From Candidatus Bathyarchaeota archaeon (GTDB taxonomy: Archaea > Thermoproteota > Bathyarchaeia > 40CM-2-53-6 > RBG-13-38-9): 64,000 bases of DNA. Shown here one piece after another: positions 4,448-26,710 of this stretch. The first letter of the stretch is position 1, and every line of letters begins with the position of its first letter. The notes beneath the pieces were generated by a model. It searched no databases. It saw nothing but the letters and a program-made list of their open reading frames with translations, and was not told where the DNA came from. The stretch spans positions 64,001 to 128,000 of the forward strand of contig CAWECG010000001.1 in NCBI GenBank assembly GCA_963807605.1, written 5' to 3'. The position numbers and the translations under genes were made by a program.

Positions 4448-5302
4448 CTAGTCGTAGATAATGCCCTTCTCAATTATCTCCAATACTCTGAGTCCATCAT
4501 GGACTGATGGGCTAGGCGCCTTCTGCTCTCTTATACACTCGACAAAATACTCGAGTTCGAGTTGGAGAGGCATATGCCAATCGATAGGAACCTCTACGTT
4601 GTTCATGTATAGCCTCCATCGATTATTCTCAAAGTAGGCGAAGATATTGTCTTGAGCATAAGTGAGAACCCATCTCCTGATCTTGGGTCCGAGGCAATCA
4701 GATATCACTATGACCTCAACATCCCCGAATGTTGCCTCGACTTGGCTTAAGTAGAAGGCTTCCTTCGACCTTATCGTTACATTGTTTGGTTCACCGAGAT
4801 ACCACCTCAAGAGATCGAGATCGTGCACCGCCAAGTCTTTCAGAACTCCCGTGTTTTTTGCAACGAGTGTCGGTGAGCCCGATCTCTGGCAGAAGATCTT
4901 TCCCGGTCCTTGAAGTCCGCCGATAATTGAATGAAGCTTAACAAAAACCGGGTTGAATCTCTCTATGAACCCGACCATAGCGACTTGGTCTCTATGCGAA
5001 TCTGAAATCCTCACCAGTTCTCTTGCTTCTTTCAGACTTGTTGACATGGGTTTCTCGACTAGGACGTGTTTAGTAGATTCTAACGCGGAGATAGCAACCT
5101 CCGCCAGGCTATTGGCAGGAACGGCTATATCGACCGCATCGGCAATCTCCAGCAGTGATCCCAGAGACTTCTGAGCGAGCCTTCCTTCGTAGGCCGGATC
5201 ATAGATTCCAACAACTTCAGCTTCCGGAATCTTGCTCCAGCTCTCATAGTGCCTCTTGCCCCAACTTCCCAATCCGACAAGCCCAATCTTGATTATATTC
5301 AA
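4448..5302 (-). CDS. Gfo/Idh/MocA family oxidoreductase
   Basis: GLVGLGSWG Rossmann motif, HVLVEKP, GFIERFNP, DLAVHDLD. Confidence 0.9.
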   Translation of the reverse strand: MNIIKIGLVGLGSWGKRHYESWSKIPEAEVVGIYDPAYEGRLAQKSLGSLLEIADAVDIAVPANSLAEVAISALESTKHVLVEKPMSTSLKEARELVRISDSHRDQVAMVGFIERFNPVFVKLHSIIGGLQGPGKIFCQRSGSPTLVAKNTGVLKDLAVHDLDLLRWYLGEPNNVTIRSKEAFYLSQVEATFGDVEVIVISDCLGPKIRRWVLTYAQDNIFAYFENNRWRLYMNNVEVPIDWHMPLQLELEYFVECIREQKAPSPSVHDGLRVLEIIEKGIIYD

Positions 5303-5847
5303 GCGACTTCCAAACCCTCTTTCCTTCTCCTATCTAATACGTATCGGATGGCCCGTTCGCCAAGAATCCTGTCATCAATCCCAAGCTTGAGCACCTCATC
5401 GCTCTTAACGTTGAGGCTGCACACGGCAACAACAGGGCCGTTCAGGCTCGCAAGGTACCTGTCTTTCTCAGCTACTTCTCTTATGCAAATGACCTTCCCG
5501 ACTCTTTCTTCGCGAAGTAGTCGAGAAGAGAATCCCTCAAAGATAATTGCATCAATCTTGTCGGCCCACAGATCAAAATCACTCAGATCGGTTTCATCAC
5601 CATTCTTCACCATTATGGCCTTCTCAGAATCCGAAACCGTTGAGACTATTCTGGCCCCCGCCTTCCAGTGTCTCCAAGTATCCGTACCTTCCTTATCTAG
5701 GGTGAATCCATTCTGGCTGACGTGCTTGACGGTCATGATTGATAGATCTTTGCTTGTCAGGAACTTTACGACTATCTCTACTGCAGTAGTCTTTCCTGAA
5801 GCCTTTCCACCTAGAACTGCCAGAGTAGGAATGATCGGTTTGAACAT
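5299..5847 (-). CDS. mobB: Molybdopterin-guanine dinucleotide biosynthesis protein B
   Basis: GGKASGKTT P-loop, TVKH, DKEGTDTWRHWKAGA, IFEGF. Confidence 0.9.
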   Translation of the reverse strand: MFKPIIPTLAVLGGKASGKTTAVEIVVKFLTSKDLSIMTVKHVSQNGFTLDKEGTDTWRHWKAGARIVSTVSDSEKAIMVKNGDETDLSDFDLWADKIDAIIFEGFSSRLLREERVGKVICIREVAEKDRYLASLNGPVVAVCSLNVKSDEVLKLGIDDRILGERAIRYVLDRRRKEGLEVA

Positions 5848-5921: not shown

Positions 5922-6173
5922 TGGTGGGGCCGAAGGGATTTTCATGGCCTCTGAGGCCATTTTGAACCCTCGACTTCCGCCACGTCTTTGTCTACGGGTT
6001 TCTTCCCGCGCTCCTGAAGTTCTTCATTCCTCGGTAGGTCAGCAAACCCTTATTCAGGTCTCTTCTGGAGCCCTTGGCGGTCGACTTCCAACAATCCTTG
6101 TTGGTTCGACTGTCGTCATCCCTGACTAGAATCCGTCGTGACATGCCCAGTAGCATGATCTATCTACGGCCCC
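5922..6173 (-). tRNA. trnW: tRNA-Trp(CCA) with five BHB-type introns and encoded CCA end
   Basis: Exons 6173-6164, 6130-6112, 6073-6065, 5999-5992, 5974-5961, 5938-5922. Joined: GGGGCCGTAGTCTAGTCAGGGATGACGACGGGCTCCAGACCCGTAGGTCGAGGGTTCAAATCCCTTCGGCCCCACCA (77 nt). Acceptor GGGGCCG/CGGCCCC, anticodon stem ACGGG/CCCGT, loop CT-CCA-GA, T arm GAGGG-TTCAAAT-CCCTT. Each junction falls after the 2nd nt of a 3-nt bulge next to a 4-bp helix. Confidence 0.9.
6000..6064 (-). ncRNA. Canonical 37/38 intron of tRNA-Trp carrying a box C/D guide RNA (predicted Cm39, Cm34)
   Basis: Guide GGGTTTG followed by CTGA (6042-6039), small hairpin, ATGAAGA box (6027-6021), second guide CTTCAGGAGC. The D+5 rule points to C39 and C34, as in the known archaeal tRNA-Trp intron guide. 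The second D box is degenerate. Confidence 0.7.
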
Positions 6174-6207
6174 TTTGGGATGATCGACCCCAACCAGATG
6201 ACCGCAC

Positions 6208-6221
6208 TTAATTTAATTAAA
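6208..6221 (-). promoter_or_regulatory. Probable TATA box of the tRNA-Trp gene
   Basis: TTTAATTAAATTAA on the minus strand, 35-48 nt upstream of the mature 5' end. Confidence 0.5.
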
Positions 6222-6389: not shown

Positions 6390-7928
6390 ATGATAAAACG
6401 CGAAGCCACGACAGAAGAAGCCATCACTCTTTCTAAGATGGACCTATTCTTCAATCCCAAGTCTGTGGCCGTGGTGGGCGCCTCTAGGCACCTCAACAAG
6501 GCGGGAAATGTAATCTTCTCGAACTTTGCAGAAAATAAGCGGCGTGGTATCTTCAAAGGTGACCTATACCCTGTAAACCCAACTGATGATAGCGTTCTCG
6601 GCTTCAAATGCTATCCATCATTGAAGAAAGTCCCCGCTGACGTAGAGTCAGCGGTCATAGTTGTTCCAGCTAAATTCGTTCCAGACGTTATGCGCGAAGC
6701 AGCGCAGAAGAGTGTCAGCGTAGCCGTCATAATCTCAGCCGGGTTCGGTGAGATCGGGAATCATCAGCTGGAAGATGAGGTTAAACAGATTGCCAAGACA
6801 GCCGGAATAAAAGTGCTTGGGCCAAACTGCCTAGGGGTCTTCGATTCCTATTCAGGCGTAGACATGTTGTTTCTGCCTGAAACGAAGGTAGTCGGCAGCG
6901 GGGATGTTATGGTCGCGACCCCAAGACCGATGCAAGGCATCATAGCGATGGTCAGTCAGAGTGGAGCCTTCGGAGCTGCCGCACTCGACTATCTCACCGG
7001 AAGAGAGATGGGGATAAGTAAGTTCGTCAGTTTCGGAAACAAGAGCGATGTTGGGGAACCTGAGATGCTCTATTACCTCGGTCAAGATGAAAAGACGAGA
7101 GTTATCCTTCTCTACGTGGAGAGCATCGATAAGGGAAGGCAATTCATGAACGTGGCCAAAGAAGTCACGAAGAGTAAACCTATAGTGGCGCTTAAGTCTG
7201 GAAGAACTAATGCAGGAGCGAGGGCGGCAGCATCACATACAGGAGCCATGAGCGGCACAAGTGCGATATATGATGCGGCTTTCTCTCAGGTTGGCATAAT
7301 AAAGTCCCTAAACATGATCGAGTTCTTCAACGTCGGGAAAGCCCTCGCATTCCAGCCTCCTGCAAGAGGTAAGAATATTGCGATCGTGACAGATGCAGGA
7401 GGACCAGGAGTCATGGCTGCAGATGAATGTGAGTCTCGTGGAATCAATGTCAAGGTGTTTTCAGACGAGACCCTTACAAAGTTTGAGGAGCTGAAAAGAG
7501 AAGGTGTTATCCCTCCATTTGTTCAGAATCGAAACCCGGTCGACCTTACCGGCTCAGCAACTTCTGAGATGTTTGAGAGCGCTATGAACATAGTTGTCGC
7601 GGATGAAGAGGTACATGGAGTAATTGTCGTTGGTATACATCACCTTCCGGCAATCCAAGAGGACTTCGTCGACCGTATAGGGAAAGTGTGTACTAAAACG
7701 TCAAAACCAATTGTAGCATGTGATATCGGTGAAACAGAGATGGCCCTGTACATCAGATCTCGCTTTGAGAAACTCGGTATCCCGGCCTATCCGGCTCCAG
7801 AGGACACAGCGCAGGCGATAGCTGCTTTAGTCGCCTACGGGAAATACCTTGATAACAACAATAACTTTGACGATTATCTGGATAGCTTCTTATCTTGGCA
7901 AGGGAAGAAGCCGCTCAATAGAACCTAA
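6390..7928 (+). CDS. acdA: ADP-forming acetate/acyl-CoA synthetase alpha subunit
   Basis: FFNPKSVAVVGAS, GPNCLG, SQSGAFG, SFGNKSD, ASHTGA phospho-His motif, NPVDLTG. Confidence 0.9.
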   Translation: MIKREATTEEAITLSKMDLFFNPKSVAVVGASRHLNKAGNVIFSNFAENKRRGIFKGDLYPVNPTDDSVLGFKCYPSLKKVPADVESAVIVVPAKFVPDVMREAAQKSVSVAVIISAGFGEIGNHQLEDEVKQIAKTAGIKVLGPNCLGVFDSYSGVDMLFLPETKVVGSGDVMVATPRPMQGIIAMVSQSGAFGAAALDYLTGREMGISKFVSFGNKSDVGEPEMLYYLGQDEKTRVILLYVESIDKGRQFMNVAKEVTKSKPIVALKSGRTNAGARAAASHTGAMSGTSAIYDAAFSQVGIIKSLNMIEFFNVGKALAFQPPARGKNIAIVTDAGGPGVMAADECESRGINVKVFSDETLTKFEELKREGVIPPFVQNRNPVDLTGSATSEMFESAMNIVVADEEVHGVIVVGIHHLPAIQEDFVDRIGKVCTKTSKPIVACDIGETEMALYIRSRFEKLGIPAYPAPEDTAQAIAALVAYGKYLDNNNNFDDYLDSFLSWQGKKPLNRT

Positions 7929-25345: not shown

Positions 25346-26710
25346 ATGAAATACAATGCCCAGAAGTACAAGAGTTGGGATAAGAACGTGAAAATCGAGC
25401 CTTTGGACTCTTGGCGAAGGACACATTACTCAAGCATGGTTACGCCTGACCTCGATGGTAGCGAAGTGACGATTTTTGGCTGGATCCAAGACATACGTGA
25501 CCTTGGAAACATAGTCTTCATCACTTTGAGGGACAGAGAAGGTATTCTTCAGGTCACTGCAACGTCCAAGAAAGCTGACCTTGATACTTTTCAGAAACTC
25601 AAGAGCTTGGGAAAGCAATTTGCGGTTGGAATAAAAGGCATTGTCGCCAAGAGGGACGAGGCTCCGCGTGGCGTCGAGCTGATTCCAAGAGAAGTCAAAG
25701 TCCTAGGGCTGGCGAGTTCCCCTCTGCCCTTGGATCCAACTGGAAGAGTGCCGGCCGACGTTGACGTTCGACTGGATGCCCGGATTCTAGACCTGCGGAG
25801 ACCCGAGCCGCAGGCTATCTTCAAGGTCAGGCATGAAATTGTTAGTGTGATCAGACAATTCCTAAGTGAGAGGGGCTACCTCGAGGTACACACCCCGAGG
25901 ATAATAGCTGCTGCTGCTGAGGGGGGTGCATCCCTCTTCCCAGTTGAATACTTCGACGAGAAAGCCTACTTGGCGCAGAGCCCTGAGCTGTACAAGGAAG
26001 AGTTAATCTCAGTCTTTGAGAAAGTCTTTGAAATAGGGACCTTCTTCAGGGCTGAGGAATCACACACCAGAAGACATCTGAATGAGTTCATCTCCGTCGA
26101 TGTTGAAGAAGCCTTTGCAGAAGCAAAAGATGTCATGACCCTTCAGGAAGAACTCCTAGCAAGCATACTGAAGAGGCTTGAAAAGAGATGTGCGACCGAG
26201 CTTGGCATACTTAGCCTAGAACTTCCGTCGATCAGATTGCCTCTTACCAGATACACCTACTCCGAAGTTATCGATCAATTACAAAAAAGTGGCTTCGAGA
26301 TTCGGTGGGGCGACGATCTATCTACGCCAGCGTCTAGAGCTCTCGGGCAACTTCACAAGGACGAGTTCTACTTTGTGACTGAATGGCCAACCAAGACCCG
26401 GCCCTTCTACATCAAGCCAAGAGCCGATAAGAAGGAGATCTGTGAAGCTTTTGACTTCATGTTTGAATGGATTGAGATAACATCAGGTGGTTCAAGAGTC
26501 GATGACAAGCAGCAACTAATCGAGAGACTTAGAGAACAGGGACTCTCACCTGCAAGTTTTGATTTCCACCTTAAGACTTACGATTATGGAATGCCCCCTC
26601 ACGCTGGATGGGGTATGGGCCTGGACAGACTTGTCATGGCCATCCTGAGAAGAGAGAATATCCGGGACGTGGTCCTCTTCCCAAGGGATAGATTCAGACT
26701 CAGACCTTGA
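25346..26710 (+). CDS. aspS: Aspartate-tRNA ligase, probably non-discriminating (Asp/Asn)
   Basis: RTHY, RLDARILDLR, LAQSPELYK, FRAE, YGMPPHAGWGMG, FPRD. Pro in the anticodon-domain loop (EAPRG) suggests the non-discriminating type. True start probably near 25388. Confidence 0.95.
   Translation: MKYNAQKYKSWDKNVKIEPLDSWRRTHYSSMVTPDLDGSEVTIFGWIQDIRDLGNIVFITLRDREGILQVTATSKKADLDTFQKLKSLGKQFAVGIKGIVAKRDEAPRGVELIPREVKVLGLASSPLPLDPTGRVPADVDVRLDARILDLRRPEPQAIFKVRHEIVSVIRQFLSERGYLEVHTPRIIAAAAEGGASLFPVEYFDEKAYLAQSPELYKEELISVFEKVFEIGTFFRAEESHTRRHLNEFISVDVEEAFAEAKDVMTLQEELLASILKRLEKRCATELGILSLELPSIRLPLTRYTYSEVIDQLQKSGFEIRWGDDLSTPASRALGQLHKDEFYFVTEWPTKTRPFYIKPRADKKEICEAFDFMFEWIEITSGGSRVDDKQQLIERLREQGLSPASFDFHLKTYDYGMPPHAGWGMGLDRLVMAILRRENIRDVVLFPRDRFRLRP

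Follow-up and report, generated by a model that had tools for sequence, protein, structure and literature searches.

What does a 252-nt archaeal locus encode when five inserts interrupt it, and how could its transcript be spliced when one of the splice motifs borrows bases of the acceptor stem? The locus lies in a 64,000-nt stretch of DNA from a Candidatus Bathyarchaeia genome (the window, whose first letter is position 1 for all coordinates given without a contig). We find that it is best explained as a functional, single-copy tRNA-Trp(CCA) gene, the transcript of which would be spliced in five steps, aided by its own leader, and would bear a guide RNA in one intron (probability roughly 0.85 for this explanation as a whole).

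Six exons and five introns

The locus (6173-5922, minus strand) consists of six collinear exons of 10, 19, 9, 8, 14 and 17 nt and five inserts, which make up 175 of the 252 nt (69%; the initial annotation had estimated about 70%). Removal of the inserts leaves a 77-nt tRNA-Trp(CCA) with an acceptor stem of 7 bp, anticodon and T stems of 5 bp each, and an encoded CCA. ARAGORN calls the joined exons tRNA-Trp(cca). A split or permuted tRNA was ruled out, as the six exons lie in one locus in the same order. The parts of the gene, all exons being taken from the parse of the locus, are as follows.

6164..6173, minus strand: exon 1 (tRNA 1-10)
6131..6163, minus strand: intron 1, 33 nt, position 10/11; central helix of C5-U8 with ACGG, fully paired in 36/36 orthologues
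6112..6130, minus strand: exon 2 (tRNA 11-28, including 17a)
6074..6111, minus strand: intron 2, 38 nt, position 28/29; inner helix of 5 bp with compensatory changes (parse and orthologues)
6065..6073, minus strand: exon 3 (tRNA 29-37; anticodon CCA at 6068-6066)
6000..6064, minus strand: intron 3, 65 nt, canonical position 37/38; putative reduced box C/D guide (parse and orthologues)
5992..5999, minus strand: exon 4 (tRNA 38-45), 8 nt
5975..5991, minus strand: intron 4, 17 nt, position 45/46; helix CCGT/GCGG, found in 61/61 orthologues
5961..5974, minus strand: exon 5 (tRNA 46-59)
5939..5960, minus strand: intron 5, 22 nt, position 59/60; hBHBh' motif with covarying inner stem (parse and orthologues)
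5922..5938, minus strand: exon 6 (tRNA 60-76, with encoded CCA)

The central helices are fully paired (4/4) at 10/11 (CCGT/ACGG), 45/46 (CCGT/GCGG) and 59/60 (TTCA/TGAA), and paired at 3/4 positions at 28/29 (GACG/CGCC) and 37/38 (CTCC/GAAG). Every cut falls two bases into a 3-nt bulge, so that all ten obey the BHB bulge rule, as first proposed. Good flanking helices on both sides are found at 59/60 only. The other four motifs are relaxed rather than strict hBHBh', with one flank absent or weak, and each intron has at least one partial flanking helix. The 10/11 helix pairs C5, C6, G7 and U8, and its outer pairs take G3, G4, C12 and U13. This bears out the earlier observation that the motif needs acceptor-stem bases 5-7, to which U8 is added. 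Because the 10/11 motif uses bases of both the acceptor and D stems, both stems must be open.

We confirmed the parse with a spliced aligner written for the purpose, which combines a general archaeal tRNA profile, stem-pair scores and BHB-scored jumps and was given no parse. It recovered the identical five introns with a score of 102.1, compared with at most 42.3 on the reversed genome; 200 dinucleotide shuffles of the locus scored -16 on average, with a maximum of 30.3. The five-intron parse is not due to chance. The coordinates, intron lengths, helices and tRNA-Trp(CCA) call of the initial annotation were all correct, with ARAGORN and the unguided aligner in agreement. Note that the unspliced gene was detected neither by ARAGORN nor by Rfam (at gathering thresholds or at E<=10). 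Because both miss such genes, the number of tRNA genes recorded for these genomes is too low.

Parses of 6 to 9 introns, obtained for one Trp gene (L007), two Tyr genes (L118 and L123) and Asp, were beam-search errors, and template-guided re-parsing put the count at five in L007 and in each of the 13 Tyr genes. Six introns were seen in none of the 88 Trp and 13 Tyr genes. We also discarded putative introns at 72/73, and those at 44-50 of Ser and Leu genes, taking them for artefacts or variable arms.

The locus is located between a gene for a MobB-like GTPase (5299-5847, minus strand) and a divergent gene for an acyl-CoA synthetase (6390-7928, plus strand), which has relatives at 76-82% identity in Ca. 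Bathyarchaeia genomes. The genes pheS/pheT and leuS are close by, and gene order is kept in family relatives.

The 37/38 intron as a predicted methylation guide

We parsed 88 Trp loci of the class, a hand-picked and unevenly related sample. All 88 have the 37/38 intron, which is the longest and most conserved of the introns, and the pattern of its junction matches 270 of 401 genomes of the class (some of these matches being chance). The intron contains a stretch antisense to the 3' splice junction, boxes D' (CUGA) and C' (AUGAAGA) on either side of a short hairpin, and the element GGAGC, antisense to 31-35. Both boxes are conserved across the class, D' as CUGA or variants. Counting back from box D', the fifth base is paired with C39 in 80 of the 88 genes. 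Furthermore, where AT replaces AA at the end of the intron, the guide base has changed from T to A in 15 genes. Because the guide base covaries with the last base of the intron, the guide would read the unspliced junction. It is thus likely that this intron directs the formation of Cm39.

The closest known counterpart is the euryarchaeal pre-tRNA-Trp intron (Pyrococcus sR50, Haloferax volcanii), a box C/D guide for positions 34 and 39 (reviewed in PMC7994747). The two share the same tRNA, the 37/38 position, antisense near 39 and 34, and internal D' and C' boxes. They differ in that the present intron has no recognizable terminal boxes (no box C at the 5' end, and a box D that is degenerate and out of register in this gene) and in that its C34 element is imperfect in this order, with a mismatch at 36. 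It would also act on a precursor with four further introns, and here the methylation is a prediction only. Because the terminal boxes are unrecognizable, we class the intron as a reduced relative, which would act at position 39 as the euryarchaeal guide does, and not as a full member.

The D'/C' core could instead be a structural element, in the form of a kink to which L7Ae binds and which helps the RNA to fold or be spliced, and not an active guide. The absence of terminal boxes fits this reading, as does the lack of an Rfam match to the 37/38 guide even at E<=10. In part of family f2 (genus g9; L039-L047, L050 and L056), the position-39 antisense has decayed and D' and C' are kept, which also favors a structural role. 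However, such a role would not account for a fifth-base rule that hits C39, the known position of the euryarchaeal guide (PMC7994747), in 80/88 genes, nor for antisense that follows the last intron base, and fibrillarin and Nop are encoded in the genome. We therefore regard a purely structural core as unlikely, though it is the strongest of the rival readings, and continue to favor the methylation guide.

A leader complementary to the acceptor strand

The introns had been seen in the initial annotation, whereas the guide and the leader had been overlooked. The leader, 18 nt long, is complementary to the 3' strand of the acceptor stem as well as to positions 18-24 of the tRNA. Its two modules and the probable promoter element are as follows.

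6185..6191, minus strand: leader module a, GGGGUCG, a spare acceptor 5' strand complementary to tRNA 66-72 (sequence, folding, orthologues)
6177..6183, minus strand: leader module b, UCAUCCC, complementary to tRNA 18-24, i.e., the D-loop and the 3' strand of the D stem (duplex energy, folding)
6214..6221, minus strand: probable TATA box TTTAATTA, which precedes the leader decoy by 30 nt (sequence; AT-rich core)

In ViennaRNA models, the probability of the 10/11 helix goes from 0.00 in the leaderless RNA to 0.98 once the leader is present, and a shuffled leader yields 0.04. The leader raises this probability in 27 of 36 orthologues and lowers it in none; the effect is small or nil in several (families f8, f10 and part of f2). 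Module b forms a duplex of -12.1 kcal/mol, compared with -3.8 in shuffles (none of 50 reached the observed value), and its pairing is present in both the MFE and centroid structures. It is strong in nine f1 genes and most f2 genes and absent from the short leaders of f8-f10. These models make it likely that the leader acts as a chaperone for 10/11 splicing. In a slightly less secure, fuller version, it would be a two-part cis chaperone that replaces the first 13 tRNA bases, enabling the 10/11 site and ordering five splicings and a guided methylation.

The leader copy could also be a by-product, left by duplication of the 5' end or by the arrival of an intron, or it could protect the 3' end, with EndA opening the acceptor stem and the gene still being real and spliced. 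Three observations point this way. First, a decoy-like stretch is kept in all 24 same-order genes with a first intron at 17/17a or 25/26, where it brings no gain in helix probability (in 17/17a genes of other orders, it was found in 0/10). Second, the part that such genes retain most faithfully, GGTGGGG, is complementary to 69-75, including the CC of the CCA end (same-order Trp genes L012, L013, L018, L032, L039-L058 and L076). Third, after full splicing the energy model gives the decoy 0.77 and the true acceptor stem 0.03, so that the decoy would trap the spliced RNA. Since the decoy outcompetes the acceptor stem in the two-dimensional model, release must rest on tertiary folding or proteins outside that model.

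Yet other observations speak against a by-product. The decoy accompanies the 10/11 intron in 36/36 genes and is found in 0/6 same-order genes without a D-arm intron, and intron and decoy were lost jointly in separate lineages (G007 of f1, G024 of f10, and families f3 and f7). It also follows five different acceptor sequences within one genome: in the host, tRNAs Asn, Thr, Lys, Tyr and Trp, which have introns at 8/9, 9/10 or 10/11, each have a leader that matches their own, differing acceptor 3' strand. Their leader duplexes average -16.1 kcal/mol, compared with -5.7 for 30 other tRNAs. Moreover, module b fits the G20 variant of these tRNAs.

The promoter is displaced as well. TATA-like boxes lie at -42 to -52 in these five host tRNAs and at a median of -36 in the others, and the AT-rich core keeps a constant distance from the decoy in family relatives. 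Because the boxes sit further upstream, the leader copy is probably transcribed. A sigma-70 promoter scan, which is not suited to Archaea, found nothing. Given these points, a by-product or a role in 3'-end protection is rather improbable, and we retain the leader as a predicted chaperone.

One exception among the 30 other host tRNAs is tRNA-Gln(CUG) (G000:C4:321470-321502, plus strand): although the first intron in its parse comes only at 21/22, the sequence ahead of the gene matches its acceptor 3' strand.

Conservation, processing and related systems

Five is the commonest intron number among the 88 Trp genes (33 genes), followed by three (22), four (21) and fewer (12); none has six. The same five sites as here occur in 27 of the 88, this gene included, from four families, and 17/17a replaces 10/11 in the other six five-intron genes. 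In Trp genes of the family, exons are 98% identical, compared with 57-84% for introns. The central helices are nevertheless paired in 100% (10/11), 87% (28/29), 78% (37/38), 100% (45/46) and 89% (59/60) of orthologues, whereas slid-helix controls are mostly 13-58% paired, with one 45/46 slide at 88%. Pair type also changes (G-C/A-U/C-G/U-A) within the inner stems of the 28/29 and 59/60 introns. Conserved helices in drifting introns are the pattern of selection on splice structure.

The host genome (2.65 Mb, 5 contigs, 94% complete) has one tRNA with a CCA anticodon according to the spliced aligner. A search with junction-spanning 18-mers and an intact-arm pattern found no intron-free Trp gene in this 94% complete assembly. 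The check for a second tRNA-Trp suggested at the outset has thus revealed neither another CCA anticodon nor an intact Trp arm, and this locus is apparently the only tryptophan tRNA gene of the genome. That it is a pseudogene or degenerate relic, with Trp decoded by an intact gene missing from an incomplete five-contig assembly, is very improbable given the constant exons, the conserved splice helices, the recurrence of the split gene across the class and the failure to find an intact copy. The gene and its splicing are almost certainly real.

Heavy interruption is general in this genome. The 34 well-resolved tRNA genes, a set that leaves out Ile-GAU and some Leu and Ser tRNAs, hold 71 introns (2.1 per gene, after four artefact calls were dropped); 94% are interrupted and 71% have two or more introns. 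The tRNA-Tyr(GUA) gene (L108, C2:53336-53546, plus strand) also has five, at 9/10, 30/31, 37/38, 53/54 and 59/60. Its leader copies its acceptor strand, and the same five introns occur in 12 family relatives. By eye, tRNA-Asp(GUC) (G000:C3:457900-458085, plus strand) appears to have introns in both acceptor strands (about 4/5 and 67/68) and at 24/25 and 48/49, and its 4/5 helix would borrow two leader bases.

On sequence grounds, the host encodes a broad-specificity EndA and a ligase. The catalytic EndA alpha subunit is nearest to crenarchaeal structures (2cv8, E 1e-38; Aeropyrum pernix 3p1z, E 3e-37), and one of its lysines aligns with K44 of the A. pernix loop that confers broad specificity. 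A second, non-catalytic-looking EndA-like subunit is present, as are genes for RtcB, fibrillarin and Nop.

We propose that transcription starts at or just ahead of the leader decoy and yields a precursor of about 270 nt, which would undergo five rounds of cutting and joining by EndA (alpha2beta2, with the broad-specificity loop) and RtcB. Modules a and b would occupy tRNA 66-72 and 18-24, leaving bases 3-13 free for the 10/11 BHB to form and be cut early. The 10/11 intron is probably the first to leave because its leader-stabilized motif is the sole one predicted to be pre-formed, and it is plausible that this step precedes cloverleaf folding, as originally suggested. While occupying 23-24, the leader would compete with the helix of 28/29 (G23-G26), and intron 2 would therefore probably leave after intron 1. 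The 28/29 motif and the helix beside 37/38 also have G29 in common. L7Ae, Nop5 and fibrillarin would bind the C'/D' kink of the 37/38 intron, and C39 would be 2'-O-methylated on unspliced precursors. Because this methylation would need the unspliced junction, removal of this intron is probably late. The true acceptor stem would form last, and RNase P would take off the leader.

The exact order remains tentative, and we would not bet on every step. The helices of introns 2-5 have P<=0.2 in every context of the two-dimensional energy model, so equilibrium folding yields no order for them. Because this model leaves them so rarely formed, introns 2-5 would need protein or kinetic help.

Such an order fits the one seen in Cyanidioschyzon merolae, in which tRNAs also have several BHB introns and cutting begins at the most stable BHB and ends at 37/38 (PMC3728597). 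However, C. merolae is a eukaryote with at most three introns per tRNA, and its order was demonstrated by RT-PCR rather than inferred. The split tRNAs of Nanoarchaeum and Caldivirga likewise have complementary leaders, the pairing of which helps BHB formation (PMC4033280). Those leaders pair in trans and build the motif, whereas the present one would pair in cis with mature strands, outside the motif.

The initial annotation called five introns exceptional. This holds against the older maximum of three in Thermoproteales (reviews PMC4033280 and PMC4090602; Sugahara 2007, 2008) but not against Asgard archaea, in which genes with four introns, including a tRNA-Trp, have been tabulated (PMC11291895, Suppl. 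Data 4, 2024) and up to five in one gene were reported for Atabeyarchaeia and Freyarchaeia/Jordiarchaeia (bioRxiv 10.64898/2026.10.13.758758, October 2026). Nor does it hold within this order, where 33 of 66 sampled Trp genes have five. The count ties the highest reported; it is not a record.

Thermoproteales share the relaxed BHBs, sites such as 45/46 and 59/60, an alpha2beta2 EndA with specificity loop and signs of intron copying. They differ in their maximum of three introns, and 10/11 and 28/29 are absent from the non-exhaustive example positions of PMC4090602. No leader helper is described for them in the literature consulted. The Asgard genes resemble those studied here in their non-canonical BHB sites and up to five introns per gene, and the Asgard load (2.2 introns per gene, with 97% of genes interrupted and 71% holding at least two) is near that of the host. 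They belong to another lineage, and the preprint is silent on Bathyarchaeia, leaders and Trp.

Titles and abstracts yielded nothing specific on Bathyarchaeia tRNA introns or a leader/acceptor helper (subscription journals fell outside coverage), and both the lineage and the leader helper are unreported in the literature searched. Bathyarchaeia, an abundant sediment and soil class, thus join Thermoproteales and two Asgard classes as a further lineage with extreme tRNA interruption. The main interest lies in this unreported lineage and in a well-supported predicted leader chaperone; the count alone is unsurprising. If the leader works as proposed, it explains how introns persist whose splice signal borrows the acceptor stem, and the 270-nt RNA becomes a ready in vitro substrate for studying splicing order, leader function and guided methylation together.

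In family f9 (L027, L080-L083), the 28/29 intron of the Trp gene is 81-91 nt long and forms a long interrupted hairpin with bulges, which may conceal a nested BHB intron. In a relative (G022), the 10/11 and 45/46 introns of the Trp gene (L014, C5, about 25490-25700) match at 16 of 17 bases, and both sites are preceded by the exon hexamer CCGTAG; in the gene studied here, the similarity of these two introns is no higher than background. The G022 match suggests that sequence was recently copied or gene-converted between the two sites of this one gene, and bears on how such introns arrive.
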